52,462 bases of DNA from Candidatus Levyibacteriota bacterium (lineage in GTDB: Bacteria > Patescibacteriota > Microgenomatia > Levybacterales > UBA12049): positions 1-52,462 of the forward strand of contig DAIDHK010000009.1 of the NCBI GenBank assembly GCA_027459725.1, read 5' to 3'. A program made the position numbers and the translations under genes. The notes below the pieces were generated by a model, which did not search any database, was not told the origin of the DNA, and saw only the letters and a list, made by a program, of their open reading frames with translations. Shown piece after piece: positions 25,509 to 51,695 of the stretch (position 1 is the stretch's first letter; each line of letters begins with the position of its first letter).

Positions 25509-25515
25509 TAGAATT

Positions 25516-26121: not shown

Positions 26122-26128
26122 TTCTTCA

Positions 26129-26689: not shown

Positions 26690-26692
26690 GGT

Positions 26693-27277: not shown

Positions 27278-27286
27278 AACTAAAAT

Positions 27287-27922: not shown

Positions 27923-27930
27923 AGGTTCCA

Positions 27931-27959
27931 TTGACAGATTATGAACCCCTTGCTACGAT
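27931..27959 (+). promoter_or_regulatory. Internal sigma70-type promoter for pilX-pilMNO
   Basis: TTGACA, 17 nt, TACGAT, 9 nt, ATG 27969. Confidence 0.65.
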
Positions 27960-27968
27960 AAAATAGCG

Positions 27969-28895: not shown

Positions 28896-28910
28896 TCCAA
28901 TATTTTAAAT

Positions 28911-29942
28911 ATGGCTAGCTCATTTGGAATAGATATAGGTACAAAGAAAATTAAAGTTGTTATGCTGCAAGGTGATCAAAATCGGCAGTCTCTCAAAGCT
29001 TGTATGTCTGCAGATATGCCAGGTCCAGGTATGTTATCCGAATCATCTTTCGATTTGGAAGAGATTTCTGAGACGATTAGACAGCTAGTCAAAGATGCCA
29101 ACATTCCCACCAGTTTGGTTAATGCGGCGTTACCCGATAGTGCAGTATATAGTAAAGTAGTCTTTATTCCGGAAATGTCGGCTAAAGACTTAAATAATGC
29201 TATTTACTGGGAAGCTGAACAGAATATCCCTGCCCCTCTTGCTACTCTAAATCTATCTTATCAACAATTAAGAAAACGAGAAGTAAATGGAGATACTATG
29301 CTTGAGGTTTTAATTGTCGGAGCACAATCTGCTATGGTTAAAAAGTACCGTAATGTACTGGAAATGGCAGGTTTGAAACCTCAGTGCTTAGAAACAGAAA
29401 TAATTTCGGTCATAAGAGCTATAAATTTAACCCAAAAATCTCCTACTACTATATTAATGAACGTGGGTAGATTTAATACAAGTATCGTGGTCATTGAGCA
29501 AGGAGTAATTAGTTTTATATATTCAATTCCCTTGGGTAGCGTGGCAATATCAAGAGCTGTGATGACACAATTTAACCTGGCTGAAGATCAGGCCGACCAA
29601 TATATAAAAGTATATGGCGTTTCAAATCAACCAACAGGTGAAAAGATAGCAAATGTTATTCAACCAATTTTACAATCTTTATTGACTGAAGTCAGAAAAG
29701 CGCTCGCCTATTACTCAGAGAAAAATAAGCAGTCTTCTACAGTTAGTCAGATTATTTTGTCTGGGCAGTTAAGTACACTTTCGGGTATAGATGTTTTTTT
29801 TGTTAAAAATTTAGGTATTGAGACAGTCATCGCCAATCCCTGGAAAATGCATTCGATTGAAAGAGTTCCTAAGCAGATTCTAGATACAGAAACAGATTAC
29901 GCAACTGCGGTCGGGCTGGCTCTGGTTGACTATGAAAAATGA
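28911..29942 (+). CDS. pilM: Type IV pilus assembly protein PilM
   Basis: FGIDIG actin-like motif, WEAEQNIP, IILSG, ATAVGLAL. Confidence 0.93.
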   Translation: MASSFGIDIGTKKIKVVMLQGDQNRQSLKACMSADMPGPGMLSESSFDLEEISETIRQLVKDANIPTSLVNAALPDSAVYSKVVFIPEMSAKDLNNAIYWEAEQNIPAPLATLNLSYQQLRKREVNGDTMLEVLIVGAQSAMVKKYRNVLEMAGLKPQCLETEIISVIRAINLTQKSPTTILMNVGRFNTSIVVIEQGVISFIYSIPLGSVAISRAVMTQFNLAEDQADQYIKVYGVSNQPTGEKIANVIQPILQSLLTEVRKALAYYSEKNKQSSTVSQIILSGQLSTLSGIDVFFVKNLGIETVIANPWKMHSIERVPKQILDTETDYATAVGLALVDYEK

Positions 29943-37944: not shown

Positions 37945-40488
37945 ATGGAAAGTAATTTTCAATCAACTGGTTTTAATAAAGAAGAAAGAAACAGTATTTT
38001 AAAAAAACTAAATTTAAGCTTAAAACATTTGAGAGAATACATTATAAGTGAGCTCAAAATAGGCAAAATTGCTGAAAAATTTTCAGCAAAAAGTAGGTCA
38101 AAATGGTATAATACACCCAACATGGTCGATTTTGCTCCCCGCCGGCATCGACGGGTTAAACACTTATTTCATATTCCCAGTTTTCTTTCACTTTCTAATC
38201 TTAATTTTTGGAGTGTGGTGGTTAGACTTATCTTCATAGGGCTAATGTTAATGATTATTGTAGTCCCCCTTACTTTCTGGTATTTTAGCCGTGATTTACC
38301 ATCACCAGGTACATTAGTAAATGCAAAATATGGAGATGCTACTAGAATTTATGACAGGAATGGAGTATTGCTATATTCGGTTTACCAAAACGAAAATCGT
38401 ACATATGTAAGTTTGCCTGAAATCTCGAAATATATAAAAGAAGGAACAATTGCTATCGAAGATAAAAATTTCTACACCAACGGTGGATTTTCTCCAATTG
38501 GTTATGTTCGTGCTTTATATCATTATATTAAGGGTGATGGATTAGGTGGTGCTTCTACAATCACTCAGCAGTTAGTTAAAAATGTCCTCCTAAATAATCA
38601 GAGAACAATAACACGTAAGATCAGAGAGCTTATTCTGTCCATTCAAGTCAATCAAATGTATTCCAAAGATCAAATATTGGAGATGTATTTGAATAATATT
38701 CCTTATGGTGGTACGGCTATTGGTGTTGAGGCAGCTGCGCAACAATATTTTGGAAAAGATGCAAATGAACTGGATATCGCACAGAGTGCATTTATATCTG
38801 GTTTGCCGCAAAGTCCTTCTACTTATTCACCATTCAGTGGTAATAAATATTACATTCCACGTACCAACGCAGTATTATCTCAGATGTACGCTGACGGTTA
38901 TATTACTCAAAGCCAGCAGGTGGCGGCGGAGAAAGAGATTGCTAACTATCAATTTACTCAACATGTGGGAGGTATAAAAGCACCGCATTTTGTAATGTAT
39001 GTTAAACAACTGTTAGCTAGTCAATTTGGTGAACAAGCAGTGGAGACTGGTGGATTACAAGTCACTACCACACTGGATTATAACATTGAAAAAGAGGTTG
39101 AAGATGATATATCTACAGAATTAGATAAGCTTAAAGGTTATCACGTTACAAATGGGGCTGCTATTGTTACTGATCCCAAAACTGGGGCAATTCTGGCGAT
39201 GGATGGAAGCAAAGATTATTTTGATAACGCTAATGACGGGAATTTCAATGCTGCATTGGCATATCGTCAACCAGGATCATCTTTAAAACCCATTATGTAT
39301 TCTGTTGCTTTCGAGCATGGTTATACTCCTGCTACTCTAGTTATGGATGTTGCGACAGATTTTAAACAGAATGATTCAGAACCAGACTATATTCCTGTTA
39401 ATTATGACAGTAAATATCGAGGACCTATTCAGTTACGTTTTGCATTGGGTAATTCCATTAATGTCCCAGCAGTAAAAATGTTAGCCAGAGTTGGTATTAA
39501 ACCCGTAATGCAGCAAGCTTACAATATGGGTATAACAAATTGGCAACCAACTCAAGCCAATTTGAATAGTGTTGGATATTCATTAGTATTGGGAGGGCGT
39601 GAAACAACCTTATTGCAGGAAGTTACAGCTTATGGAGTATTCGCTAATGCAGGTATTCGTATAGACCCATATGCTATTGAAAAGGTAACTGATGATAAGG
39701 GGAATGTTTTATATCAACATCAGACTACGAGTGGAGAACGTGTATTACCTACTGACGTATGTTTCTTGATCTCTCATATTTTGCTTGATAATAATGCTAG
39801 AATTATGGAGTTCGGACCTTACTCTAAGCTAGTTGTTCCAGGTCATACTGTTTCTGTCAAAACTGGCACTACTGATAATAAAAGGGATAATTGGACCATA
39901 GGTTATACTCCTTCGTATGTAGTGGGAGTTTGGGTTGGTAATAACGATAACTCCCCAATGAATCAGGCAATTGCGTCAGGTATTACAGGTGCAGCTCCAA
40001 TCTGGAATGATATTATGAGTCAGATCTTAAAAGGAAAACCAGATCAACCACCACAAAAACCGTCTGATGTTATTGCCGTCACAATTGATGCATTTGCTGG
40101 CGGTCTACCCCATCCAGGACAACCTACAAGAGTGGAATACTTTATAAAAGGAACAGAGCCGAAAGCACAATCTCCTGTCTATGAAACAAAAGATGGGAAA
40201 AATTATGTCGTTTTTAAAGAATCAGATCCAATTTCTACGGATGGCAAGAATCGTTGGCAGGATGGTATTAATGCTTGGATACAACAGAATCATAAAAATG
40301 ATCAGTTGTGGAATCCTCCCGCAGATTTAGTAAACTCGACAGCAGATACTACTACATGGGCTCCTGCAAGTCAGACACCGAATCAAGTAACTTCTAGTCC
40401 ACAAACACCTACACCCACGCCATCGTCTAATAATCCAACTCCTACACCAGAGCCTACGGATACTCCTGTACCAACGCCAACACCTTAG
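37945..40488 (+). CDS. Class A penicillin-binding protein (PBP1A family)
   Basis: TM; transglycosylase EDKNF, GASTITQQLVKN, RKIRE; transpeptidase SSLK, SIN, KTG; Pro/Thr-rich tail. Confidence 0.95.
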   Translation: MESNFQSTGFNKEERNSILKKLNLSLKHLREYIISELKIGKIAEKFSAKSRSKWYNTPNMVDFAPRRHRRVKHLFHIPSFLSLSNLNFWSVVVRLIFIGLMLMIIVVPLTFWYFSRDLPSPGTLVNAKYGDATRIYDRNGVLLYSVYQNENRTYVSLPEISKYIKEGTIAIEDKNFYTNGGFSPIGYVRALYHYIKGDGLGGASTITQQLVKNVLLNNQRTITRKIRELILSIQVNQMYSKDQILEMYLNNIPYGGTAIGVEAAAQQYFGKDANELDIAQSAFISGLPQSPSTYSPFSGNKYYIPRTNAVLSQMYADGYITQSQQVAAEKEIANYQFTQHVGGIKAPHFVMYVKQLLASQFGEQAVETGGLQVTTTLDYNIEKEVEDDISTELDKLKGYHVTNGAAIVTDPKTGAILAMDGSKDYFDNANDGNFNAALAYRQPGSSLKPIMYSVAFEHGYTPATLVMDVATDFKQNDSEPDYIPVNYDSKYRGPIQLRFALGNSINVPAVKMLARVGIKPVMQQAYNMGITNWQPTQANLNSVGYSLVLGGRETTLLQEVTAYGVFANAGIRIDPYAIEKVTDDKGNVLYQHQTTSGERVLPTDVCFLISHILLDNNARIMEFGPYSKLVVPGHTVSVKTGTTDNKRDNWTIGYTPSYVVGVWVGNNDNSPMNQAIASGITGAAPIWNDIMSQILKGKPDQPPQKPSDVIAVTIDAFAGGLPHPGQPTRVEYFIKGTEPKAQSPVYETKDGKNYVVFKESDPISTDGKNRWQDGINAWIQQNHKNDQLWNPPADLVNSTADTTTWAPASQTPNQVTSSPQTPTPTPSSNNPTPTPEPTDTPVPTPTP

Positions 40489-40614
40489 TAGTTAGTTAGG
40501 TAATTATTTGTCTTATAGATATTTAGAAGAATAGTCAGGAATTGTTGATTTCGTTGAGTCAATTATTTCATTCTAATGTTGAGTATGGTTGTTTATGGAA
40601 GTATTATTGCGATA

Positions 40615-42576
40615 TTATTTTTCGTGAATCTGCCACTTTCTTTTGAGGACAGATATTATCTTTTCATGTACTGTTTTGACATCTTCCTGAGTTAAATTCT
40701 TTTCAATGTTTTGATATATAACATGAAAAGTTCTAGTACTCTCAAAGCGGTCGATAAGTTCTACACTAGTTACTAAAGAACTTTGTTTCTTGATCAGATC
40801 AATAACTTCCTGAGTAAGTATATCTCCAGAAATGACTAATGAGATATCTTCTAGCACTGGAGGGAACTTGCTGGGTGAATTATAGGTTTTTCTCAAGCTA
40901 GCTGTGGCGATTAACTGTTCGAAGTTTACTTCAAAATCTAAAAGATTTTCATCTAGAATTTCTATGACACCATTTTGCTTTCCTGCTATATAAATCATTG
41001 CCCCATCTCCTCCTTGGTCGGAAGGTTTAAATTCATAATTCTTAATACCCATGTCGTTAAATAATTGTTGTAAGTATCCCTTTATAGTGTAGAATGAAAT
41101 ATTTGATTGCTTTATAACCACAGCTAATACTCGTATTTCTTCCGGTAGACTATTCTCTCTCTTGTGATATACGTTGGAAATCTCAAAAATCTTTATTTGA
41201 TCATAACTCTTATTTTCACTTACTACTCTGAGTAAGCTGGGTACCAAAGAATTACGCATATAGACAAATTCCTCATTAAGAGGGTTATCAATGGTGACAG
41301 CTTCATCCAATGGGCCTTCATACAGATTTTCCGGTACCATAGAATAAGTATATGTTTCAGTGAATCCCCAGTATTTGAAGGCATTTTTAACTCTTTGTTC
41401 CCAATAAAATGGATTTTTTTCTTCTTGTACTATTTGTTTAGCGTTCAATAAAGGAAGTTTTACGGGTAGATTATGATAACCATAAACTCGTGCTATTTCT
41501 TCTATAATATCTTCTGGTAATGTAACATCATAAGCTCTTATAGTGGGTACAGTGACATGTAAATTATTATCTTCTTTACGTACATGAAAACCCAATCTAG
41601 TCAAAATATCAATTGATTTATACTCAGGAATATCGACACCAATTATGCTATTAATCTTTTGCAGACTTACTGTGATATGTTTCTCCTCTGACTTGTGGGG
41701 GTAAAGATCGATAACTTGACTGACGACTTTTCCGTCGGCTAATTTTTGATACAGATGAATTCCATATTGTACCGCTATCTCGCATAGATTGGGATCAAGA
41801 TGCTTCTCGTTTAATTGTGCTGCTTCAGTTCTGATTCCTAAGTTCATAGATGTTTTTCGCACTTTGTTTGAATCAATATTGTTTACGAAAAAAACTATGC
41901 GTTTCGTTTGATCTGTCACTACGCTATTTTTAAGTCCCATGATTGCCAAAAGATCGATTATTTCTCCCTTTTTATTCTCGGCTACAATTTCACCCCCGTT
42001 AAGTTTGTATGTTTTATTATCCAAAGTGGTGATTTTTTCACCTAATTTGGCTTCTCTTATGATTAATTCATTGCCACCTAATCTGTCATAATCAAACACA
42101 TGAGTAGGTTGTCCTGTGACCCGCATAACATAATTGGTAATGTCAATTAAATTATTTAAACTGCGAATTTCACTGCTCTCTAGTCTTTCTGAGATATACT
42201 GAGGTGATTTTCCAATTTGTACTTCCATTACTACAGCACATACCCGGTTGACAGCAGGACTTTTGATAGTGATGCTAAGATCAGCTGTATCACTATCTGT
42301 GGATTTCTTGATTTCGGAGGGAATGATTAGAGGCTTATATGTAGCCTCTAATCCATTTTGAGGCAAAACAGCCCCTGCCTCGCGTGCTAATCCATCTACA
42401 CAGGCCAAATCGGGACGATTAGTAGTAACTTCAATATCATAAATAAAATCATCATTTTGTTTCTCCACTCTTTCTATTGAAACACTCGTTAATGAGATCT
42501 GTTTAGCTATTTCCTGTGCTGATGCAGGAGTATGTAAGTATTCTTTTAACCAGGAATCAAGTATTTTAATATTCAT
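40615..42576 (-). CDS. pheT: Phenylalanine--tRNA ligase beta subunit (lacking the OB-fold insert)
   Basis: TTNRPDL, DITNYVM...GQPTHVFD, DIIEEIARVYGY, C-terminal anticodon-binding domain. Confidence 0.96.
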   Translation of the reverse strand: MNIKILDSWLKEYLHTPASAQEIAKQISLTSVSIERVEKQNDDFIYDIEVTTNRPDLACVDGLAREAGAVLPQNGLEATYKPLIIPSEIKKSTDSDTADLSITIKSPAVNRVCAVVMEVQIGKSPQYISERLESSEIRSLNNLIDITNYVMRVTGQPTHVFDYDRLGGNELIIREAKLGEKITTLDNKTYKLNGGEIVAENKKGEIIDLLAIMGLKNSVVTDQTKRIVFFVNNIDSNKVRKTSMNLGIRTEAAQLNEKHLDPNLCEIAVQYGIHLYQKLADGKVVSQVIDLYPHKSEEKHITVSLQKINSIIGVDIPEYKSIDILTRLGFHVRKEDNNLHVTVPTIRAYDVTLPEDIIEEIARVYGYHNLPVKLPLLNAKQIVQEEKNPFYWEQRVKNAFKYWGFTETYTYSMVPENLYEGPLDEAVTIDNPLNEEFVYMRNSLVPSLLRVVSENKSYDQIKIFEISNVYHKRENSLPEEIRVLAVVIKQSNISFYTIKGYLQQLFNDMGIKNYEFKPSDQGGDGAMIYIAGKQNGVIEILDENLLDFEVNFEQLIATASLRKTYNSPSKFPPVLEDISLVISGDILTQEVIDLIKKQSSLVTSVELIDRFESTRTFHVIYQNIEKNLTQEDVKTVHEKIISVLKRKWQIHEK

Positions 42577-42580
42577 ATTA

Positions 42581-43615
42581 TTAGAACTGCTCCAGAAAAT
42601 TTAGGTTATTACTATATAATGTACGTAAATCGTCGAGTTGCAGACCTTCGCTCATCATTAATACTCTCTCAACACCAAAACCAGATGCAAAACCTGAATA
42701 TTCATCGGGATCAATATTACATGTTCGTAGAACATTAGGATGTACCATACCGGCACCTCCTAATTCCAACCATCCAGATTTACAAAGTTTACATCCTCGT
42801 CCCTCACAAACACCACAAGAAATATCAACCTCAAATGAAGGTTCTGTAAACTGAAAGTGATATGGTCTAATACGTGTAGTACGGTTTACCCCGAAATAGG
42901 ATTTAACAAAGTAATCGAGAGTTCCTCTTAAGTGTACTATAGATATATTCTTGCCAACCACCAGGGTCTCAAATTGATGAAACATCGCAGAATGTGAAAC
43001 ATCGGACTGGCGACGGTAATTTTTTGCAATATTAATCATCTTAATAGGCAATTGTTTGTTCAACATTTCTCTAATTTGTCCATTCGAAGTGTGTGGAGTT
43101 AAAACCACAGGACCATGTTTTGGATCTGGTTTTTGTCTGATGAAAAATGTTTCCCAGTCATCCCGTGCTGGATGATCTTTAGGAAAATTTAATGCTTCAA
43201 AAGCAAACCAGTCAAAGTCAATTTCCGGATAGCGTTCACGAGTAAAACCAATGCTCTCAAAAATATTAGTTATTTCTTCAATGACCTGGGTTACAGGATG
43301 TAGATGTCCGAGTGGTGGAAGTAAAGCTGGGTCTGTGACATCGATATTGTGAGTGACTCTTTGTCGGACTTTCTCACTTAATTTCGCCTCAGTTTCATCG
43401 ATCAGATTTTCAACGATTTGTTTTGTCTCATTGATCTTCTTACCAAATTCTGCTTTTTTTTCTGGAGACAGTTTAGTAATCTCTTTAAATATTTTGGTTA
43501 GTTCTCCACTTCGACCGATAAACTGGAGTTTAATATCGTTTAATTCACTTTTAGTTTTGGCCTCTAAAATTAATGAGATAGCGTTATTTTTAATGCGTAA
43601 TAATTCCTCTTCCAT
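42581..43615 (-). CDS. pheS: Phenylalanine--tRNA ligase alpha subunit
   Basis: GHLHP, HPARD, FHQFE, FQFTEPS, GAGMVHPNV, GFGVER. Confidence 0.97.
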   Translation of the reverse strand: MEEELLRIKNNAISLILEAKTKSELNDIKLQFIGRSGELTKIFKEITKLSPEKKAEFGKKINETKQIVENLIDETEAKLSEKVRQRVTHNIDVTDPALLPPLGHLHPVTQVIEEITNIFESIGFTRERYPEIDFDWFAFEALNFPKDHPARDDWETFFIRQKPDPKHGPVVLTPHTSNGQIREMLNKQLPIKMINIAKNYRRQSDVSHSAMFHQFETLVVGKNISIVHLRGTLDYFVKSYFGVNRTTRIRPYHFQFTEPSFEVDISCGVCEGRGCKLCKSGWLELGGAGMVHPNVLRTCNIDPDEYSGFASGFGVERVLMMSEGLQLDDLRTLYSNNLNFLEQF

Positions 43616-43661
43616 ATTGGTTTATTATAGCTCTATCGGGTTGAGTTAACAATCTATGATT

Positions 43662-44807
43662 CTAAAAATACTTATCAATTTGATTGATACTTACACAATA
43701 ACTTACACGAACATATCTTTCCCCATTTGATCCAAATGCTGTGCCGGGGGTAAGCAAAATATTTTTTTCATGCAAAATATGCATAGAATATTCCTCTGAG
43801 TTTTTAAATTCATCTGGAATTTTTGCCCAGATATATAACGCACCTTGTGGCATGTCAAAAGTTAATCCAAGTTTACTTAGTTTTTCCGCAATAATATCTC
43901 TTCTCTGTTGATAGCTTTCAAGCATTTGTTTTTGCCAGATTAAATCAGTTTGAGTTAATGCATAAGCTCCCAGTTTTTGTAGTGGTAACCACATCCCAGA
44001 ATCCATTTGTGATTTTACTTTCGCCAGACCATCAATAATTTGTTTATTTCCCACACACCAGCCCATACGAAAGCCTGCAAATGAATAAGTCTTGGAGAAA
44101 GAACCAATCTCAATTGCTATCCCTTTTGCACCTTTAACTTGTAAGATACTGGGAGCTTTTTCACTTGAAAATGTAATTTCTGAGTAAGCATTGTCATATA
44201 AGACAAGAAGCTTATGTTTGCGTGCAAAGGTGACTAAATCTTCTAATCCGGTAAGAGTAATTACTTTACCAGTTGGATTAGAAGGGAAATTGACCCACAT
44301 ACATTTAGTTTTGGGTGAAATTAATTTTTCTATCGATTTTAAATCAATTGGAAGATTTTTATCATTTGATAAGTCATAATAGACGACCCTTGCCCCCACC
44401 ATTAATGCTGGATCAGTATAGGCAGGGTAACCTGGATTGGGAACTAGAATTTCATCACCTTCATTAAGTAAGGCCAGGGGTAAATGAGAAATACCCTCTT
44501 TGGCCCCAAGTAAAGGTAACAGCTCATCTGCATTTAATTCAACTTCAAATCGCTTTTGATACCAGTTAATTAAGGCATCTGAGAATTCTTTACATGCCCT
44601 AAAGCCTGGATATAAATGCATTTTACTCTCGTGTAAATATTCTTCCAGCTTATCTAGGTATATTTCACTTGTAGGTACATCAGGAGAGCCAATTCCAAAA
44701 CTAAGTACTTTGCGCCCCGTTTCCTTTTCAACTTTAACTACCTCCCTGGCTATTTTGGCAAAAACGTACTCTGAGAATAAGTTTAATCTGTTTGCAGTAT
44801 TAACCAT
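43662..44807 (-). CDS. PLP-dependent class I/II aminotransferase (probable aromatic/prephenate aminotransferase by context)
   Basis: NFPSNPTG, DNAY, SFSKTYSFAGFRMG, PGTAFG. Confidence 0.88.
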   Translation of the reverse strand: MVNTANRLNLFSEYVFAKIAREVVKVEKETGRKVLSFGIGSPDVPTSEIYLDKLEEYLHESKMHLYPGFRACKEFSDALINWYQKRFEVELNADELLPLLGAKEGISHLPLALLNEGDEILVPNPGYPAYTDPALMVGARVVYYDLSNDKNLPIDLKSIEKLISPKTKCMWVNFPSNPTGKVITLTGLEDLVTFARKHKLLVLYDNAYSEITFSSEKAPSILQVKGAKGIAIEIGSFSKTYSFAGFRMGWCVGNKQIIDGLAKVKSQMDSGMWLPLQKLGAYALTQTDLIWQKQMLESYQQRRDIIAEKLSKLGLTFDMPQGALYIWAKIPDEFKNSEEYSMHILHEKNILLTPGTAFGSNGERYVRVSYCVSINQIDKYF

Positions 44808-44825
44808 TTTGTCTATTATATACTA

Positions 44826-46175
44826 TTAGTGATTTCGTCTTTTGATGAGCATGAAACTTGTAAAATTCTCTGATAAGTCCTGCAGGTTTTCTTCGATTAT
44901 ATTTAAATCATAAAGATCAGCTAACATTTTGCTACCCATTACGGCAATATTTTTATCCAGTTTCTTTTCAGATAGTAGTTTTGCCACCTTAGCATGATCA
45001 ACTAGTTCACCTTTACCAGACACTATTTTCAGATTGGAAAATTTAATCTGTAAATTAGATTTACATTGTGCAAATACCTGAGGATGAGTCATGATGGTTG
45101 TAATTTCTTTTATTTTTGTATCACTACGAATCATTAATGCATGACTAATCTTTATGGCAAATTCTTCAACAATTTGAAAATTGTATTTGGACATCGCATT
45201 TACGCTTTCTCCGACTATCCCGCCAATTGAATTATGAATGGCAAATAATCCAGCATCTATTTCGCCTTTATGCAAAGCTTTTAAGACATTCTCAGATGTA
45301 AATAAATATTTGGTCTTAAATTTATTTATCTGATGACGATTCAGATAATCATGCAAGGCTTCTTCATTAAAACTGCCTTTGCCGCCTTGAATACCCACGG
45401 TTAGCCAACCCCTTTTAACTTGTCTGGGTAGTAATTGGTTATACAGCTTATCATAACTTTTGCCTAGTTTAATTCTCATTTGCCGTGTGTATGGGTTAAA
45501 TTGCTGGAGGTTAAGAAATAACTGTTTGGTATCATGACAAGTTTGGTCTTTTACTTCAAGCAACTTTTGGGTGCCTAGAGAGTCAATTAAAGTAGGCATC
45601 AGTTTGTATTGCTCAAGCAATCTGCCAACAAAATGAGTTAATCCCTGTGAATTTGCCGCTAATTTATCATGTTTTTTTGCTGTCATCTCAACAACCCTCA
45701 AACCTTTAGATTGAAAAAAATCTTTCCATAGGTGGTAGTTTTTATCATCCATACGGAACTTGTCAATAACAATAGGCAAGTTTGTAAATCCGTTTTTGCT
45801 GCTATCTGGCCCAAACATAGGGTGAGTCAACAAAATTTGCTGGCTAGAAGTCTTCAGATGTTTGTTAAATACTTCTTTGGGATGTACTTTCACCGAAAGA
45901 ACATCAATCATGGTTTGGTTGGGTCGAATATGTTTGAGGTGTGACTTAATTACTGCTTCGAATTGATCGATGGGAACAGCATAGAAGATTATATCACTTA
46001 AATATGCCTGCTCAACGGTATTAGCTATAACAGTAGTCTGTTCTAACCCCAGTTTCATACGATCCAACCTAGAACGGTTAAAAATTACGATTTTAAAATC
46101 ATCTTTTAGCAATCTATAAAGTGTTTGTCCAAAACGACCGAAGCCAACAATGGTAATTTCTGTTTTAGTTTTCAT
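44826..46175 (-). CDS. Prephenate/arogenate dehydrogenase - prephenate dehydratase fusion
   Basis: N-terminal TyrA (IVGFGRFG, DVLSVK, HPMFGP, HDKLAANSQGLTH); C-terminal PDT (GIQGGKGSFNEEA, HNSIGG, THPQVFAQC, IQD-like LQDLSENFTSF); no ACT domain. Confidence 0.9.
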   Translation of the reverse strand: MKTKTEITIVGFGRFGQTLYRLLKDDFKIVIFNRSRLDRMKLGLEQTTVIANTVEQAYLSDIIFYAVPIDQFEAVIKSHLKHIRPNQTMIDVLSVKVHPKEVFNKHLKTSSQQILLTHPMFGPDSSKNGFTNLPIVIDKFRMDDKNYHLWKDFFQSKGLRVVEMTAKKHDKLAANSQGLTHFVGRLLEQYKLMPTLIDSLGTQKLLEVKDQTCHDTKQLFLNLQQFNPYTRQMRIKLGKSYDKLYNQLLPRQVKRGWLTVGIQGGKGSFNEEALHDYLNRHQINKFKTKYLFTSENVLKALHKGEIDAGLFAIHNSIGGIVGESVNAMSKYNFQIVEEFAIKISHALMIRSDTKIKEITTIMTHPQVFAQCKSNLQIKFSNLKIVSGKGELVDHAKVAKLLSEKKLDKNIAVMGSKMLADLYDLNIIEENLQDLSENFTSFMLIKRRNH

Positions 46176-46176
46176 G

Positions 46177-46437
46177 CTACCTTTCCTTTTCAACAGCTAT
46201 GTCATGTAATAAATTGTAAACTTTAGTAACAACATTTGATGTAAGGCCAAACTTTAAACCAATATTTAATCGGTGTTTCAATGCTTGCTGTTTACGCGTG
46301 GTATCTATGACAGGAGTGCCTGTTTGTTTTTTTATTTTACCAATTTTTTCAACAATAGATAATCGCTTGGCGACAAGCTTGAGTATTTCTACATCGATAG
46401 TATCAATTTCTTGACGTAATTGAATCAGAGTTTTCAT
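46177..46437 (-). CDS. Chorismate mutase (AroQ type)
   Basis: LRQEIDTIDVEILKLVAKR...IGKIK...DTTR. Confidence 0.88.
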   Translation of the reverse strand: MKTLIQLRQEIDTIDVEILKLVAKRLSIVEKIGKIKKQTGTPVIDTTRKQQALKHRLNIGLKFGLTSNVVTKVYNLLHDIAVEKER

Positions 46438-46493
46438 AATTTATATTACCTTTTGTCCCCTAGCTGATAGTTAGGGGAGAAAAAACAACACAG

Positions 46494-46688
46494 TTATCGT
46501 CTTATAACTACGTAGTCGCTTGATGGTTGTATATTATCCATATTTCTAACAGGTCTACCTGACCGTAAAGATAAAGGTCTAATTGCTGTTGCAGGCCCGA
46601 AGTCCATTCCGGCATCATTTGTTGCTACTCCAATTTGTTTTCCATCTTTAAATATTGGATTAATTACAGTTAATTCTATTCTTGACAT
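46494..46688 (-). CDS. Hypothetical 64-aa protein
   Basis: Co-oriented within the operon, preceded by strong SD GGAGGTGA. Confidence 0.6.
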   Translation of the reverse strand: MSRIELTVINPIFKDGKQIGVATNDAGMDFGPATAIRPLSLRSGRPVRNMDNIQPSSDYVVIRR

Positions 46689-46731
46689 ATAAACTCACCT
46701 CCCTTCATATCCCCTCATATAGGGTCTTACT

Positions 46732-47670
46732 TTATGCACTCATGTAAAAATCATGAGTTTGTCTATCTCTTGCGTTTAAGTTACGGAATGCAGAGAGTTC
46801 ATTGACTAAATCTCTTAATTCATCAAGTGTAATATGTTGTTTGGTATCGGTTTGTGAGTCACCAGCTTCAATCAAAATACCATCATATAAGAAACCCGAG
46901 CCTTCTCGCATTTTCATAGCCTCGACGGTGGTTTTAATGATATCATCTCGCAAGTCAGGTCCCAGACTATGACTAGGGTCAAAGAACAATCTATGTTGAG
47001 TTTTTTGTTTGACCCTGCGTGCGATTTCATGAACTAATGCACTACGGAATCTCCCTTTTTCAGGTACTTCCACTCCACGATGTATTAGTGCAACTCTGTT
47101 TTCCATTAGAGGAGCAAAGGTAGTCAAGCCTTTCCAAGTTTTTTCCAAAGGTGTTTGTGTTCCCGTAGGATTATTAGCATTATCTAAAGACGTTCCTAAA
47201 GTTTTGCCATTTTTAATACCTAGGTACCAGCCATACTTGTGTGCAACTCTTGACATTTGTCCAATTTGAAAACCTAATTGCATGACTGCCGGATTCCAGA
47301 ATAATCCTTTTCCATCAGGGAGTATACCTGCATACCAGTTCATCTGTATCTCTGGTAACATAACCTCACAAGCTACGACTAATCCCGTTTTTTTTACTAC
47401 GTCTCTGGCAAAAGCCACACTAGGAGGTAAATAGTCCAAACTTCCTTCTTGGGCTTTAATTAAGGCGGGGTAGTCTATACCCATCCCTTCACCAGTTTCA
47501 CTGTTTTCAGTGCGCGACTTGACACCCACTACCCTAGTCCCCCAGATGGCTGGACGGCCGTCAGGCGAGAGAATATCTCCTATTTGATGTATCTGGTGGA
47601 TATTTTGTGTATCCACTGAACACGGGCCAGCGATAATTGTTAGTTTGTTTGATGGTAATTCTTTGTTCAT
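46732..47670 (-). CDS. Divergent class I (I-beta-like) DAHP synthase family protein
   Basis: IIAGPCSVD, KSRT (KPRT-like), IKNG, IHRG, FDPSHSLG, GILIE, D..Q; no regulatory domain. Start ATG 47670. Confidence 0.8.
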   Translation of the reverse strand: MNKELPSNKLTIIAGPCSVDTQNIHQIHQIGDILSPDGRPAIWGTRVVGVKSRTENSETGEGMGIDYPALIKAQEGSLDYLPPSVAFARDVVKKTGLVVACEVMLPEIQMNWYAGILPDGKGLFWNPAVMQLGFQIGQMSRVAHKYGWYLGIKNGKTLGTSLDNANNPTGTQTPLEKTWKGLTTFAPLMENRVALIHRGVEVPEKGRFRSALVHEIARRVKQKTQHRLFFDPSHSLGPDLRDDIIKTTVEAMKMREGSGFLYDGILIEAGDSQTDTKQHITLDELRDLVNELSAFRNLNARDRQTHDFYMSA

Positions 47671-47683
47671 ATGTTCATCCCAC

Positions 47684-47708
47684 AAAAAAACCTCCCTTTT
47701 GGGAGGCT
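47684..47708 (-). terminator. Attenuator terminator hairpin
   Basis: mRNA AGCCUCCC-AAAA-GGGAGGUU with a U7 tract ending 13 nt before the DAHP synthase ATG. Confidence 0.88.
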
Positions 47709-47745
47709 AGTAAAGCTTTTAGCTTCTGGTCTTTAATTTAGACCA

Positions 47746-47811
47746 CTACTTTGCCTCCCGGGTTGGGAAGTAAAAGTAAAACCAAAAAACATTTTGAATT
47801 CTTGAGTTCAT
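47746..47811 (-). CDS. Aromatic amino acid attenuator leader peptide (21 aa)
   Basis: Hand translation MNSRIQNVFWFYFYFPTREAK*: seven consecutive Phe/Trp/Tyr codons upstream of antiterminator/terminator and aromatic biosynthesis genes. Confidence 0.88.
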   Translation of the reverse strand: MNSRIQNVFWFYFYFPTREAK

Positions 47812-47817
47812 ATAAGT

Positions 47818-47846
47818 AATATATTACTTTGTCTTGACATTGTCAA
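47818..47846 (-). promoter_or_regulatory. Sigma70-type promoter for the leader, embedded in the 3' end of rplT
   Basis: Minus strand TTGACA (47846-47841), 17 nt, TATATT (47823-47818), 6 nt, ATG 47811. Confidence 0.7.
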
Positions 47847-48174
47847 CAATTTGCTTGAAGGCGGCTGGGTCATTGACAACTAAATCACTCAAAATCTTGC
47901 GATCAAGCACAATATTTGCCTTTTGTAATTTATTCATGAAAACACTGTAGGAGAGACCTTGCTGTTTGACTGCTCCACTAATACGAGTAATCCAAAGAGA
48001 ACGGAAATCTCTTTTGCGAAGTTTTCGACCGTGAAATGCATAAGCACCAGCATGCAAAACAGCCTGCTTAGCCGTTCTGACCAGCCTGCGTTTGGTACCT
48101 GTGTAACCTTTAGCTAACTTTAGTAATTTATTATGTTTTCTTCGGGAAACCATCCCGCGTTTTACTCTTGCCAT
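47824..48174 (-). CDS. rplT: 50S ribosomal protein L20
   Basis: MARVKRG, KRDFRSLWITRI, LDRKILSDL. Confidence 0.98.
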   Translation of the reverse strand: MARVKRGMVSRRKHNKLLKLAKGYTGTKRRLVRTAKQAVLHAGAYAFHGRKLRKRDFRSLWITRISGAVKQQGLSYSVFMNKLQKANIVLDRKILSDLVVNDPAAFKQIVDNVKTK

Positions 48175-48175
48175 A

Positions 48176-48373
48176 TTATGCTGCTCCTAAAATCTTTTTT
48201 ATCTTGAATGCGAATCTTCCGTTTAATTGGGCTGGCTCTTTTTGGCGGCGAATTCTGCGTTTAGACTTACTTAATTTTTTGTGACTACCGTATTGATGGC
48301 CAAACATGACCTTACCAGTCTTGGTAATCTTAAATCGTCTGGCCGCTGCTTTGCTTATTTTCTTCTTTATCAT
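48176..48373 (-). CDS. rpmI: 50S ribosomal protein L35
   Basis: KAAARRFKITKTGKV; position between infC and rplT. Confidence 0.93.
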   Translation of the reverse strand: MIKKKISKAAARRFKITKTGKVMFGHQYGSHKKLSKSKRRIRRQKEPAQLNGRFAFKIKKILGAA

Positions 48374-48920
48374 TTTTTTTGTTCCTTTCTACGGATAATA
48401 ATCCGACCATTTGGTGACCTTCTAAATGAGGCTCACGATCCACTTTTGAGATATCACTTAAGCCCTCAATCATCTTACCCATCATATTATATCCGAATTC
48501 TGGATGAGTGATCTGACGGCCTCGAAATCTCAGCACCATTCTTACCTTATTACCATTATTTAGAAACTCTCTTGCTCGTCTCATCATGACTTGTAAGTCA
48601 TTATCAGACATGAAAGGTCCTAATCTAACTTCTTTTGTCTCAGTTGTCTTAGCCTTTCGCTTTTCCTCTTGTTTCTTCTTTTGTTCTTGATACAAAAATT
48701 TCTGGAAATCAATCAGCTTAGCTACGGGCGGATTAGCATTAGGAACAATTTCTACTACATCTATATTTCGTTCAGATGCAAGTCTCAATGCTTCATGTTT
48801 AGCCATGATACCGATCTGCTTCCCTTCGGCATCAAGTACCCTCAATGTTGCCGAATAAATACGGTCATTGATACGGTATTGCTTTCTTTGATCTTGATTT
48901 CTATTAAATCTTTTTATCAA
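48330..48920 (-). CDS. infC: Translation initiation factor IF-3
   Basis: INDRI, LRVLDAEGKQIG, PPVAKLID, KEVRL, RFRGRQ; non-AUG start. Confidence 0.96.
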   Translation of the reverse strand: MIKRFNRNQDQRKQYRINDRIYSATLRVLDAEGKQIGIMAKHEALRLASERNIDVVEIVPNANPPVAKLIDFQKFLYQEQKKKQEEKRKAKTTETKEVRLGPFMSDNDLQVMMRRAREFLNNGNKVRMVLRFRGRQITHPEFGYNMMGKMIEGLSDISKVDREPHLEGHQMVGLLSVERNKKNDKEENKQSSGQTI

Positions 48921-50661
48921 TGTCTTGTTTAACTTTCTGCAAAAAGTCGTCGAAAGATTGGCTTCCCAAGTTTTCTCCGGCTCTTGAACGTACAGAAACA
49001 GCTTCTGCAGCTATTTCCTTATCCCCTATTATACCCATAAATGGTACTTTTTGTAAAGTAGCGTTGCGTATTTTAGATTGCAGCGTCTCTGACGAATTAT
49101 CTACTTCGACCCTAATCCCTTGCTGTTTAAGTTTTTTGGCCACTTTTTGAGCGTACTGGGCATGCCTGTCAGCAATGGGTAAGAGGCTGACTTGTACAGG
49201 TGCTAACCAGAGTGGAAAAGCTCCCGCATAATGTTCAATTAGAATTCCCAGAAAGCGTTCAAAAGAGCCTACAATAGCTCTATGGAATACGAATGGCATT
49301 TTTTCAATGCCCTCACTATCGATATAATGAAGGTCAAATCTCTTGGGTTGTTGGATATCCAGTTGAATAGTGCCTGTCTGCCATTCTCTACCGAGTGAGT
49401 CTTTCATTAAAATATCGACTTTAGGACCATAGAATGCTCCTTCTCCAGCAACTTCAAAGTATTCTTTACCTGATGTATTAAGTACTTTACGTAAGACATT
49501 TTCTGCTAAATCCCAATCGGTTGCTTCTCCCAGATGCTTTTCTGGTCTTGTTCCAAATCTGAAACGATAGGTAAGATTGAAAGGTGAATACATTTCCTCA
49601 ATCATTTTTAAAAGACTTTCAAATTCTTGTTTAGCTTGTTCTGGGTAGATAAAAATATGAGCGTCATCTTGGCGGAATTGTCTGATTCTAAATAAACCGT
49701 TTAGTGTCCCTGACAGCTCGAAACGATGCAGGCTTGTAGTTTCAGCTAATCTTAAAGGTAATTCGTGATATGAGCGCGTTTTGTGCGCAAATATACGCAT
49801 ATGATTCGGGCAATTCATAGGTTTAAGACCAAAAACCTCACTTCCTTCCATAGGATTGTTTGATTCTGAGCGCAGATAGCTCATAGGTGATACAAACATA
49901 TCATCTCGATAATGTGCCCAGTGACCTGATGTTTCATATAATTCTTTTTTATTTAATTGAGGTGTTGCTACCTCTTGATAATCATATTTTTTATACATCT
50001 CTCTTGCGAAAGCATATAGAGTATTGTATAGAATTAAACCTTTAGGCAGCCAGTACGCCATACCTGGTGCAGTGTCATCAAAGAAAAACAATTCTAATTG
50101 AGAAGCAAGTTTTTTATGATCTCGTTTTTTGGTTTCTTCTAACATTAGCAGATATTCGTCTAATTTGGCTTGAGTTGAAAAGGATATACCATAAATTCTA
50201 GTCAACATTTTGTTTTTTTCACTTCCTCGCCAGTACGCACCAGCTAGGGATAAAAGTTTTACTGCTCCAATCTCTTTAGCAGGGTTGTCAGTATGACCAC
50301 CTTTACATAAATCTTCATAGTTACCGTTTTTATAAACAGTCAGCTTTTTCCCTTCTTTGGCTAATTCTTCGATTAACTCAATCTTGTAGGGCTCATGTGC
50401 AAAACGTTTCTTAGCTTCCTGTAAAGAAATTTCTTCATGAGAAGTAGAACTCCAAGTTTTAAGAATTTTTTTCATCTCCTCTTCTATTTTGGGCAAATCT
50501 TCTTCGTGCAAAGGTTTGCTAAATTCAAAATCATAATAAAAACCATTCTCTATAGCTGGACCAATTGCGCGTTTAGTATCAGGATAAAGTTTTTGTACAG
50601 CTGCAGCGAGTAAGTGTGCACTGGTGTGTCTTAAGTTTTGTAAATTTTCTTCTTGCTTCAT
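48904..50661 (-). CDS. thrS: Threonine--tRNA ligase (no N-terminal TGS domain)
   Basis: RHTSAHLLA, DLCKGGH, KPMNCP, GAFYGPK, HRAIVGSFERF. Confidence 0.98.
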   Translation of the reverse strand: MKQEENLQNLRHTSAHLLAAAVQKLYPDTKRAIGPAIENGFYYDFEFSKPLHEEDLPKIEEEMKKILKTWSSTSHEEISLQEAKKRFAHEPYKIELIEELAKEGKKLTVYKNGNYEDLCKGGHTDNPAKEIGAVKLLSLAGAYWRGSEKNKMLTRIYGISFSTQAKLDEYLLMLEETKKRDHKKLASQLELFFFDDTAPGMAYWLPKGLILYNTLYAFAREMYKKYDYQEVATPQLNKKELYETSGHWAHYRDDMFVSPMSYLRSESNNPMEGSEVFGLKPMNCPNHMRIFAHKTRSYHELPLRLAETTSLHRFELSGTLNGLFRIRQFRQDDAHIFIYPEQAKQEFESLLKMIEEMYSPFNLTYRFRFGTRPEKHLGEATDWDLAENVLRKVLNTSGKEYFEVAGEGAFYGPKVDILMKDSLGREWQTGTIQLDIQQPKRFDLHYIDSEGIEKMPFVFHRAIVGSFERFLGILIEHYAGAFPLWLAPVQVSLLPIADRHAQYAQKVAKKLKQQGIRVEVDNSSETLQSKIRNATLQKVPFMGIIGDKEIAAEAVSVRSRAGENLGSQSFDDFLQKVKQDIDKKI

Positions 50662-50824
50662 GCTTGTAATATAGCAAAAACTCGAGCTTTTATAAAGCAG
50701 ATAATAGCAGCTAGCGTCCGCTATCTTCTGCTTTAGACATTATTATCTCGTAATATTTTTTAACTGAGCTCTCAGACAATTAGTTCTTTGTATATCCTCA
50801 TAGAACGTGCGGGGGGCAATTATT

Positions 50825-50977
50825 CTATCTTTGTGCTTCAAAATAATTACGTCTATCAGGATTTACGCTTAGATTAGATTCACTAATATATATCATGTCA
50901 TCTAAATTAGATGTAATTCTTTTGTATATATCTGGTGAGTGAAAGTGATATTCATCAAGTTTTATTTCACTAGCCAT
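50825..50977 (-). CDS. Possible 50-aa hypothetical protein or gene remnant
   Basis: Hand translation MASEIKLDEYHFHSPDIYKRITSNLDDMIYISESNLSVNPDRRNYFEAQR*, preceded by GAGGAG. Confidence 0.35.
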   Translation of the reverse strand: MASEIKLDEYHFHSPDIYKRITSNLDDMIYISESNLSVNPDRRNYFEAQR

Positions 50978-51212
50978 GTTTTTTCTCCTCTCTTTAAATT
51001 ATCAAACCACAAAAAAAACTCGCATTGCAGAATCATCTATTTCACAATAATACAACCCCGCTAAACAGAGGTAGAACCAGTCATAACAATAATATGTAAT
51101 TTGCTCATGTTTTGTTACGTTATAAATCATTCATATGATGTCAAGAGCACCGTCAAAAAAAAGAGACTCATACTTTATTGACAAGTTTAAGTTAGAGATG
51201 AATACTGTATTC

Positions 51213-51695
51213 ATGAGAATAAATGCAAAATTAATATGGGCAATTGTTACCTGTGAACTGGTAGGTTTAGCTGGGACTCCCTTTACCATTGCCGGTATAC
51301 ATACGTGGTATTCTGGATTGCATAAACCAATGCTAAATCCACCTTCCTGGGTTTTTGGTCCTGTATGGACTGTCTTATACCTTTTGATGGGAATTTCTTT
51401 GTTTCTTGTTTGGAATAAGAAAACAAGTGGGAGTATAAAAATAACACAACTTCTTGGAATACAAATGTTTATATTGCAGTTATGTCTAAACTTTTTTTGG
51501 TCCTTAATATTTTTTACTTGGCATCAGTCATTCTTTGCTCTTTGGGAGCTGGCTGTTTTATGGATGACGATTATGGTATGTATAATAGTATTTTTTAAAA
51601 TTTCAAAAGCCTCAGCGTATATCTTAATACCGTATTTATTATGGGTAACCTTTGCAGGTTATCTAAATTATAATGTTTGGATCTTAAACCGATGA
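51213..51695 (+). CDS. tspO: TspO/MBR family tryptophan-rich sensory protein
   Basis: WYSGLHKP..NPPSWVFGPVWTVLY, QLCLNFFWS, PYLLWVTFA. ATG 51213 preferred (TTGACA-17-AATACT-6-ATG). Confidence 0.93.
   Translation: MRINAKLIWAIVTCELVGLAGTPFTIAGIHTWYSGLHKPMLNPPSWVFGPVWTVLYLLMGISLFLVWNKKTSGSIKITQLLGIQMFILQLCLNFFWSLIFFTWHQSFFALWELAVLWMTIMVCIIVFFKISKASAYILIPYLLWVTFAGYLNYNVWILNR

Follow-up and report, generated by a model that had tools for sequence, protein, structure and literature searches.

Known attenuators and the locus between rplT and pheS

Escherichia coli trpL is the classical attenuator, in which the leader RNA pairs alternatively as 1:2, 2:3 and 3:4. Attenuation of pheST and pheA in the same organism is described in the accessible text of PMC11802643. 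Here, we analyze a leader that resembles these systems and lies between rplT and the pheS-pheT genes of a Candidatus Levyibacteriota bacterium, which belongs to the Candidate Phyla Radiation (CPR, or Patescibacteria). The sequence is contig DAIDHK010000009.1 of assembly GCA_027459725.1, taken at its full length of 52,462 nucleotides (nt) and called the window below; positions given without a contig refer to it, and the leader and its gene string all lie on the minus strand. The element combines a short open reading frame (ORF) rich in codons for aromatic amino acids with an intrinsic terminator. On the strength of sequence analysis, we put at about 0.85 the probability that it is a ribosome-mediated leader-peptide transcription attenuator of the pheM/pheL type.

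It is useful to compare the window leader with E. coli pheM (b1715), the leader of pheST-ihfA. Both stand in the order rplT, leader, pheS-pheT, read in a single direction, and both have a short ORF in which a Phe/Tyr run is followed by Ser/Thr codons. After its run, pheM has a GGAGGC segment and then a GCCUCC..GGAGGC-U7 terminator. A covariance model derived from CPR leaders (R1, described below) covers pheM exactly, from ATG through U tract. Over the whole E. coli K-12 chromosome, R1 ranks pheL first at 48.3 bits and pheM second at 42.2, with the next match at 23.6. Thus, the "pheM position" that the earlier note on this DNA had assigned to the leader holds, since pheS-pheT follow in the same gene string and R1 matches pheM itself. 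The differences are also clear. Unlike that of pheM, the window promoter overlaps the end of rplT and no Shine-Dalgarno (SD) sequence is present; the window leader includes a Trp codon; and five genes come before pheS here, and up to ten in relatives, the whole shikimate pathway included. E. coli, for its part, has a separate hairpin and U tract after rplT and ∼120 nt between rplT and pheM. The likeness of R1 to pheM and pheL could stem from shared constraints rather than descent: a pyrimidine-rich codon run needs a purine-rich partner, and therefore a CCUCC-like terminator arm.

With pheL, the attenuator of pheA, the window leader shares a Phe-codon run, alternative hairpins, a GCCUCCC/GGGAGGC-type terminator, and a cargo that includes chorismate mutase (CM) and prephenate dehydratase. 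It departs from pheL in genomic place, in its mixed Phe, Tyr and Trp codons, and in its leaderless layout. The Rfam model Phe_leader (RF01859) aligns end to end (1-125 of 125) with the window at 37.1 bits (E = 0.0011), below the curated 55 bits, and many of its consensus helix pairs are noncanonical there. At 20 loci of relatives it gives 11 matches of 35.3-47 bits, none reaching 55. These scores lie below the gathering threshold, and by the curated test the leaders are therefore not members of RF01859. Beyond this subthreshold match, no curated RNA family was found at the locus. In Firmicutes, the usual control of pheST is a T-box leader; the T-box covariance model has no match at E ≤ 10 in 46500-51000. 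With trpL, finally, the window leader shares the four-region logic and a stop codon so placed that a terminating ribosome masks region 2, and differs from it in amino-acid specificity and sequence.

Two further comparisons concern cargo and layout. In Corynebacterium glutamicum, the aroR leader (Phe-Tyr-Phe) precedes aroF, which encodes 3-deoxy-D-arabino-heptulosonate 7-phosphate (DAHP) synthase, and a response to Phe limitation has been reported (PMC11802643, citing Neshat et al. 2014). As far as the accessible part of that article goes, aroR resembles our case in standing before an operon that begins with a DAHP synthase gene, and differs in phylum, in having no link to rplT or pheST, and in carrying three aromatic residues versus seven in the window. 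Leaderless leader peptides with a hairpin and a U-rich terminator are described for leuL, trpL1 and ilvL of Streptomyces lividans in the available text of PMC8079986, and mycobacterial poly-Cys short ORFs are presented as leaderless leader-peptide attenuators in the available text of bioRxiv 10.1101/834739. In those portions, the actinobacterial leaderless starts are mapped by transcription start site (TSS) sequencing, whereas that of the window is deduced from promoter geometry; lineage and sequence family differ as well. Streptomyces also has attenuators before trpS and leuS, which the open portion of PMC1262725 likens to pheST. According to what is accessible of PMC2965389, leader peptides were known in 2010 only in Proteobacteria and Actinobacteria, to which Firmicutes were then added. 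Our literature search, to which supplementary files were external, found no paper on attenuators in Patescibacteria/CPR; in one CPR paper (PMC7143001), the term "leader peptide" denotes bacteriocin leaders.

Alternative helices and a predicted ribosome-dependent switch

All of the elements named in the earlier note are present on the minus strand at the positions it gave. The leader ORF, MNSRIQNVFWFYFYFPTREAK* (47811-47746), has 21 codons and a UAG stop, and R1 scores it at 89.3 bits. Its seven consecutive control codons are F9 W10 F11 Y12 F13 Y14 F15 (UUU UGG UUU UAC UUU UAC UUC; 47787-47767), and the cargo behind this short ORF comprises CM, a fused prephenate dehydrogenase/prephenate dehydratase (PDH/PDT), an aminotransferase and phenylalanyl-tRNA synthetase (PheRS), so that the codons of the run are cognate to the genes that follow. 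A six-frame scan of the whole 1,495,103-bp genome finds only six runs of at least seven aromatic codons, and the leader run is the sole one of the six to contain Phe, Tyr and Trp.

The RNA downstream of the first control codons offers mutually exclusive pairings. Region 1, UACUUUUACUUCCC (47778-47765), overlaps the last control codons and in the minimum free energy (MFE) structures is paired with region 2, GGGAGGCAAAGUA (47759-47747). Region 2, whose GGGAGGC lies at 47759-47753, can pair instead with region 3, GCCUCCC (47707-47701). Since region 2 ends at the leader stop codon, a ribosome terminating there would cover it. Region 3 is the 5′ arm of the intrinsic terminator AGCCUCCC-AAAA-GGGAGGUU (47708-47689), which has an 8-bp stem, a 3′ arm GGGAGG at 47696-47691 that is also SD-like, and a U7 tract at 47690-47684. 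This terminator thus stands between the leader ORF and the first structural gene, and its CCUCCC-AAAA-GGGAGG-U7 is the top terminator-like site across 40000-51500. Two small hairpins, UGGUCU..AGACCA and GAAGCU..AGCUUU (47745-47712), form enclosed branches of the antiterminator and vary among relatives. The MFE fold of the 156-nt leader contains the region 1-region 2 helix, the two small hairpins and the terminator; its energy is −46.2 kcal/mol, compared with −31.2 ± 3.8 in shuffled sequences (n = 200; z = −3.99; 0/200 as low).

These parts suggest the following course of events. RNA polymerase would start at a promoter within the end of rplT, or read through from rplT, and would first transcribe the 21-codon ORF, which has no SD and on whose 5′ AUG a 70S ribosome probably initiates directly. 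With Phe-, Tyr- and Trp-tRNA all charged, the ribosome would reach the UAG and cover region 2 (GGGAGGC). Regions 3 and 4 would then pair, the CCUCCC/GGGAGG-U7 terminator would form, and transcription would end before the operon. If any of the three tRNAs is scarce, the ribosome would stall at F9-F13 and mask region 1, leaving region 2 to pair with region 3. The terminator would thereby be blocked, and polymerase would read through into the DAHP-synthase-like gene, orf64, CM, PDH/PDT and the aminotransferase, and probably into pheS-pheT. On such RNA, the freed GGGAGG arm, together with U7 and a following GUG, may serve as a ribosome entry site.

Covariation in relatives bears on all three helices. 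A first alignment (A1) of 12 leaders, ATG through U tract, was used to build R1; RNAalifold recovers both the 1:2 hairpin and the terminator from it, and 5 of the 11 pairs carry compensatory changes. A second alignment (A2) holds 49 leaders aligned to R1 and fitted to P1 (the region 1:2 helix) and the terminator. In A2, 98.2% of cells in the terminator helix are paired, with both-side changes at all seven pairs, and P1 is 86.8% paired, with compensatory changes at four of its five pairs. The antiterminator (columns 93-99 with 165-171) is outside R1. It is 83.0% paired, versus 50%-67% when slid by one to three columns, and holds 21 double-change cells versus 8.6 in shuffles, a count reached in 0 of 500 shuffles. 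In a swap test, the zone after the control codons pairs all six bases of its own terminator-arm core in 36 of 47 leaders; when the arms are taken from leaders of a different core, full pairing occurs in 338 of 1390 cases.

Constraint folding, in which all nt were masked through 13 nt beyond the A-site codon and structures were computed at equilibrium rather than kinetically, shows how this RNA can respond to ribosome position. For the window leader, the probability of the terminator, P(terminator), is 0.91 in free RNA and 0.95 with a ribosome at the stop codon. It falls to 0.07 with a stall at F9, 0.03 at W10, 0.17 at F11, 0.01 at Y12 and 0.02 at F13, and so the drop that was to be expected on masking the control codons, from ∼0.9 to 0.01-0.17, does occur. 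When the spacer is shuffled (n = 200), the mean minimum P(terminator) is 0.83, and 3% of shuffled leaders fall as low as the real one. The same folding was applied to 37 aromatic leaders, leaving aside L044 and L047 (match start not ATG), L059 (Ile leader) and L018 (a near-copy of L017). By a strict definition, P(terminator) ≥ 0.8 at the stop codon and ≤ 0.2 when stalled, 21 of them switch; the minimum is ≤ 0.5 in 28, and its mean is 0.28 for the real leaders versus 0.90 for shuffled ones. Thus, folding, the shuffle control and covariation show that, in silico, the antiterminator excludes the terminator in a manner dependent on ribosome position.

Several of these results weigh against an attenuator of the kind proposed. 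First, strict 6-nt complementarity fails in 11 of the 47 leaders; five of these 11 form a GC-type terminator group with a shifted register, and two of the five still switch in folding. Second, A2 was itself fitted to P1 and the terminator, and its sequences are related, such that the shuffle counts overstate independence. Third, the window leader responds unevenly along its run, P(terminator) being 0.33 with a stall at Y14 and staying at 0.95 with a stall at F15, and 9 of the 37 related leaders never go below 0.5. Finally, equilibrium folding of related sequences speaks to the capacity of these RNAs to switch and not to their behavior.

Distribution, related leaders and the start of translation

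The earlier note had proposed a search downstream of rplT in related genomes for aromatic-rich short ORFs with covarying stems, and both are conserved. An aromatic-rich short ORF followed by a hairpin and U tract occurs at 14 of the 15 loci of relatives that carry the DAHP-synthase-like gene; the leader is directly upstream of that gene at 11 of these 14 and upstream of a preceding pfkB kinase gene at the other three. The 15th locus (L015, G201:C42) alone lacks an aromatic short ORF, although a promoter-like site and a U7-tailed hairpin lie just upstream of the gene; it may be controlled in a different way. R1 finds a match in 38 of the 61 genomes searched from the family (E ≤ 0.01) and in 23 of the 151 from the class (E ≤ 1e-4). 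These counts take in the source genome and refer to sampled genomes searched with Infernal's stricter filters. In a phylum-wide sample, the only match among 151 genomes is the source genome itself, with none in the 150 others.

At the 30 best family loci, the end of rplT lies within 100 nt upstream of the leader in 19, and the genes behind the leader include a DAHP-synthase-type gene in 12, aroB in two, and pheS within the locus in eight. All 10 class-level loci inspected have aromatic-rich ORFs. One such leader, MQNKRQLFFFFFFTSRQRS, lies ∼40 nt before pheS, and at L075 and L068 pheS follows ∼40-280 nt after the leader. Among 41 leaders, 40 have at least five aromatic residues within a 7-residue window, the exception being Ile-rich, and Trp is present in 19. 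Conservation and covariation in relatives thus extend to short ORF, stems and alternative pairing alike, in support of the layout of a ribosome-mediated attenuator that the earlier note had proposed for this locus.

This distribution bears on the simplest alternative, that the hairpin and U7 merely terminate the thrS-infC-rpmI-rplT operon and that the aromatic ORF is a product of chance in T-rich sequence. The scan of 40000-51500 found no terminator between rplT and the leader, there is no other one downstream of rplT, and runs of exactly five aromatic codons are frequent in this AT-rich genome, which holds 140 of them. Yet runs as long as that of the leader number only the six noted above, the ORF, its run and the region 2 complement recur at the 14 of 15 cassette loci and in the 38 family genomes, the antiterminator covaries, and many leader copies are not behind rplT at all. 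In view of this recurrence, we regard a bare terminator as a barely tenable explanation.

Conservation of the ORF might also reflect its product, a functional aromatic-rich micropeptide, for example a membrane or trans-acting one, to which cis regulation would be secondary. Indeed, the peptides share a conserved core, ..FWFYFTS.., and the Sinorhizobium peTrpL leader peptide provides a precedent for a trans role, to judge from the accessible text on it. However, the C-terminal halves vary in sequence and length, with totals of 14-28 residues and several peptides ending directly after FTS, and the conserved Thr/Ser codons are themselves RNA region 1, which covaries with region 2. Moreover, codon content tracks cargo: Ile-, Leu/Val- and Trp-rich versions on the same scaffold precede ilv and trp genes. 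A micropeptide is thus a very improbable primary function, and attenuation in cis is the reading that we carry forward.

The versions for other amino acids are found in the source genome itself. An Ile/Val-rich leader, MLRNQNIIVALIITR* (C8:5144-5040, minus strand), has a TATAAT 6 nt before its ATG and a terminator, and it precedes ilvB, a gene running from C8:5028 downward whose product matches the biosynthetic acetolactate synthase large subunit (651 bits; cut-off, 538). On the same contig and strand, a Leu/Val-rich leader, MTNLNQVLVALLLIRF* (C8:1430-1323), has TTGACA-17-TAAAAT 7 nt before its ATG and likewise a terminator; neither Pfam nor NCBIfam assigns a family to the 213-aa ORF that follows. 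A Trp leader with two adjacent Trp codons, MYKSNKNIAAWWNLSKRG* (C22:7960-8063, plus strand), is followed by duplicated arms, AACCUCUC/GAGAGGUU, and by U6. A 450-aa ORF begins 15 nt downstream and is the first of a same-strand gene run that ends with an ORF matching TrpA; on the upstream side, the leader's ATG and the stop codon of a small helix-turn-helix-like gene (MQNLLEG...) overlap. Among relatives, leaders rich in Ile, Leu and Val stand before ilvE-like genes in G316 and G384. Thus, the control that the earlier note would not have expected in a CPR-like genome is common in the class, and this genome has Ile/Val-rich, Leu/Val-rich and Trp leaders in addition to the aromatic one. The suggestion that a single upstream ORF senses Phe, Tyr and Trp fares less simply: the run does contain all three codon types, but Trp has a leader of its own before the trp operon, on another contig.

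Two weaker R1 matches were also followed up. One, at C3:107177-107306 (plus strand; 36.6 bits), comprises a Ser-rich ORF that contains SPSSCS and is preceded by an SD, together with a terminator; it stands before a SerB-like haloacid dehalogenase (HAD) phosphatase and may be a Ser/Cys leader. The other, at C4:11716-11846, lies inside a long ORF with no leader-like ORF and was rejected as a chance match. A side observation concerns leader multiplicity: locus L059 (G272:C38) has three R1 matches in 1.9 kb, among them the Ile-rich leader MKLKTLSIISIIITSPKGGYFA.

How translation of the window leader begins can be judged from its promoter. A −35 TTGACA (47846-47841) lies within the last rplT codons and, after a spacer of 17 nt, is followed by a −10 TATATT (47823-47818), the pair matching consensus at 11 of 12 positions. 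The −10 ends 6 nt (ACTTAT) 5′ of the ATG at 47811, so that the predicted TSS is at or adjoining the A of the AUG, which would make the mRNA leaderless; no SD-like motif was found 5′ of this ATG. The rplT stop codon (47826-47824) falls within the promoter spacer, 12 nt 5′ of the leader ATG. By itself, the promoter match is no proof, because the region shows no enrichment of promoter-like sites as a class (38 observed vs. 38.6 expected); the weight comes from relatives. Under a rule that calls for a −35/−10 pair with at least four of six matches per hexamer, and with 4496 other ATGs of the same loci as background, 24 of 41 leaders have a promoter that ends 4-10 nt upstream of the start codon, versus 2.6% of background ATGs; at 6-7 nt, the figures are 19 of 41 versus 0.76%. 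An SD-like motif lies upstream of one of the 41. This recurrent geometry, together with the scarcity of SD motifs, supports the leaderless start proposed earlier, as a prediction from sequence. A search of sequencing runs for this stretch listed one DNA-type run, which shared 0.05 of its words, and no RNA run.

The same attenuator could nevertheless be entered in another way, by ribosomes that finish rplT on read-through RNA from thrS-infC-rpmI-rplT and re-initiate at the AUG, the promoter being incidental. The closeness of the rplT stop codon to the leader ATG and the want of a terminator between them speak for this, as does the lack of regional promoter enrichment. The −35 lies in conserved rplT codons (..V-D-N/T..), and its recurrence at rplT-linked loci may therefore partly reflect the protein, which also tells against the promoter-led form of our proposal. 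The Trp leader on C22 overlaps an upstream stop codon, and 17 of the 41 leaders fail the promoter rule, in some of which (e.g., L034) a few nt separate the rplT stop codon from the ATG that follows, and re-initiation thus stays in play as a second route. Against it, leaders that are not behind rplT (family f12: L008, L010-L013, L017) have TTGACA/GTGACA-16/17-TACAAT-like promoters 6-7 nt before the ATG, and the −35 is therefore more than a set of conserved L20 (rplT) codons. The ilvB and Leu-type leaders of the source genome carry the same geometry, and the excess at 6-7 nt over background makes chance improbable. On balance, we consider re-initiation as the main route unlikely, if the likeliest of the alternatives weighed here; it touches the mode of initiation only and may coexist with leaderless starts.

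The proposed regulated operon and what it would mean for CPR bacteria

The gene string around the leader is longer than the earlier note had assumed for the regulated unit. Upstream is thrS-infC-rpmI-rplT (50661-47824). Downstream, the first structural gene encodes a divergent 312-aa protein similar to type I DAHP synthase (47670-46732), with an in-frame TTG at 47685 as an alternative start. It is followed by orf64 (46688-46494), which has a strong SD, GGGAGGTG, 7 nt before its ATG and no family match; CM of the CM_2 family (46437-46177); the 455-aa PDH/PDT fusion (46193-44826), which G434 and G004 also have at 58%-59% identity; and a class I/II aminotransferase (44807-43662). Then come pheS (43615-42581) and pheT (42576-40615), the last gene of the same-strand string. 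Thus, five genes stand between leader and pheS-pheT. The small ORFs found at the place of orf64 in relatives were considered as one conserved gene and rejected: in an all-against-all BLASTP, orf64 has no likeness to the 58-144-aa ORFs between leader and pheS, these show no mutual likeness, and none of six scanned has a Pfam family. Elsewhere in the window, a type IV pilus cluster (24167-29942, plus strand) encodes two N-methyl prepilin-like proteins, a prepilin peptidase and PilM.

The hold of the leader on the end of this string may be incomplete. A promoter-like TTGTTA-17-TATAAT lies within 43652-43616, its end 8 nt from the pheS ATG and no SD in the gap, and pheS may accordingly have a near-leaderless start of its own, which would give the essential synthetase a basal supply. 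Attenuator control of pheST may then be partial, a further point on the negative side of the balance.

At the other end of the operon, a start codon stands directly behind the terminator. The mini-ORF GUG-GGA-UGA (47683-47675) follows U7 immediately; its GUG is 7 nt from GGGAGG, and the ORF ends 4 nt before the ATG of the first gene, for which no good SD of its own was seen (ATG at 47670). An ATG or GTG lies 0-2 nt past the U run in 30 of 49 leaders, compared with ∼9% expected from the local rate. This start opens the long downstream gene in six leaders, an ORF of at most 15 codons in 19 and a mid-size ORF in five. The 3′ arm of the terminator (GGGAGG) thus precedes a start codon by 7-8 nt, the spacing of an SD, and arm and start codon may be a site of ribosome entry that the terminator conceals and that becomes accessible in read-through RNA.

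Before our analysis, the first gene had been taken to place the leader at the common entry step of aromatic biosynthesis. For the genome in its assembled form, that part of the proposal does not hold. The DAHP-synthase-like protein reaches 24.8 bits with Pfam PF00793, below the cut-off of 25.5, and with NCBIfam models 32.4 bits (cut-off, 335) and 26.3 bits (cut-off, 267.75); all family scores, those for a type I-beta DAHP synthase included, are under curated cut-offs. Its closest PDB match has E = 0.012, and a whole-genome search with PF00793 gives nothing at E ≤ 0.001. Its AGPCS and DPSH stretches align with solved DAHP synthases, and related aldolase chemistry is therefore plausible; the substrate may differ from that of the classical enzyme. 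The protein has 581 homologues at E ≤ 0.001, and the named ones among the best 120 are Patescibacteria, under the names Gottesman-, Levy-, Roizman-, Woese- and Dojkabacteria and "Patescibacteria group." In several genomes, among the listed loci L002, L003, L020, L035, L055 and L157, the gene comes directly after a pfkB-family sugar kinase gene behind the same leader.

The steps that would connect this gene to CM were not found. In an assembly rated 98.67% complete, searches for the chorismate synthase, 3-dehydroquinate (DHQ) synthase and shikimate dehydrogenase families found none, and control searches with the same three families were positive in 14, 11 and 14 of 14 reference genomes, respectively. 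The only member of the 5-enolpyruvylshikimate-3-phosphate (EPSP) synthase family is MurA, and the shikimate-kinase model gives three marginal 22-bit P-loop matches. Using AroB, AroK, AroE, AroD and AroC of relative G004 as queries, tblastn of the genome found nothing, and AroA led to the MurA locus only. TrpA is present. The absence of shikimate steps 2-7 from the genome as searched leaves the contribution of the first gene in doubt and is the last of the observations that count against our interpretation.

In relatives, the interval between leader and pheST is variable. G004 has rplT and the leader, and then aroB-aroA-aroK-aroE-aroD-aroC-CM-PDH/PDT-pheS-pheT. G434 has the same shikimate genes, and then a second leader, pfkB, the DAHP-synthase-like gene, PDH/PDT and pheST; its locus (L157, G434:C16) holds two aromatic leaders, of 80.5 and 77.5 bits, in a single rplT-to-pheT string. 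By comparison, G003, of the same genus as the source genome, keeps the leader (74.3 bits), with only two ORFs of unknown function, an aminotransferase and pheST behind it.

One reading of these facts is that the window locus is a relic, its attenuator intact, its biosynthetic cargo decaying after the loss of steps 2-7, and its present role at most a modulation of pheST, or none. The missing aroB, aroK, aroE, aroD and aroC, with MurA as the only EPSP-family protein, fit this picture, as do the reduced cargo behind the leader of G003 and the promoter-like site of pheS. But all parts of the leader are intact, its 89.3 bits ranking among the best in the family, and the five cargo ORFs are open, with little space between them. 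Furthermore, the trp operon has been retained with a leader of its own, and aromatic metabolism has therefore not been abandoned. We find decay distinctly unlikely to be the whole account. The reading that fits best is that the leader switches an aro-pheST operon of variable content, which survives here in reduced form.

As a mechanism this is textbook, and what is gained is breadth and layout rather than principle. What is new is the lineage, how large the family is, a leaderless layout whose promoter lies within rplT, an arrangement in which aromatic biosynthesis is nested between a pheM-type leader and pheST, and a start codon directly behind the terminator. A bolder version would hold that the rplT-linked leader is an ancient pheM-type element, of common descent with enterobacterial pheM and pheL, and the master switch of an "aro-pheST supraoperon" in one CPR class. 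We advance this as a speculation with the odds well against it. If it were true, in its fullest form one leaderless leader would gate the whole shikimate pathway, the Phe/Tyr branch and Phe-tRNA synthetase, and the 3′ arm of the terminator would double as the SD of a start-stop mini-ORF that passes ribosomes to the first gene only on read-through RNA. Together with the Ile/Val, Leu and Trp leaders, attenuation would then be the main amino-acid sensor of these reduced genomes, with tight coupling of transcription and translation.

CPR bacteria are mostly uncultured and are usually described as poor in biosynthesis, and to our knowledge almost nothing is known of their gene regulation. The leaders described here would provide a concrete, sequence-defined regulatory mechanism for them, in which the translating ribosome senses tRNA charging, in aromatic, branched-chain and Trp versions. 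Because the family falls below the Rfam Phe_leader threshold, it would be left unannotated by standard pipelines; with a model made for it, hundreds of loci would gain an annotation. The leader-to-pheST interval appears as a site of gain and loss of aromatic-pathway genes, even within one genus, with five cargo genes here versus an aminotransferase and two unknown ORFs in G003. More broadly, attenuation of this kind implies that transcription and translation are coupled closely enough for it in these organisms, that leaderless mRNAs are probably translated, and that some relatives keep full aromatic pathways wired to pheST.

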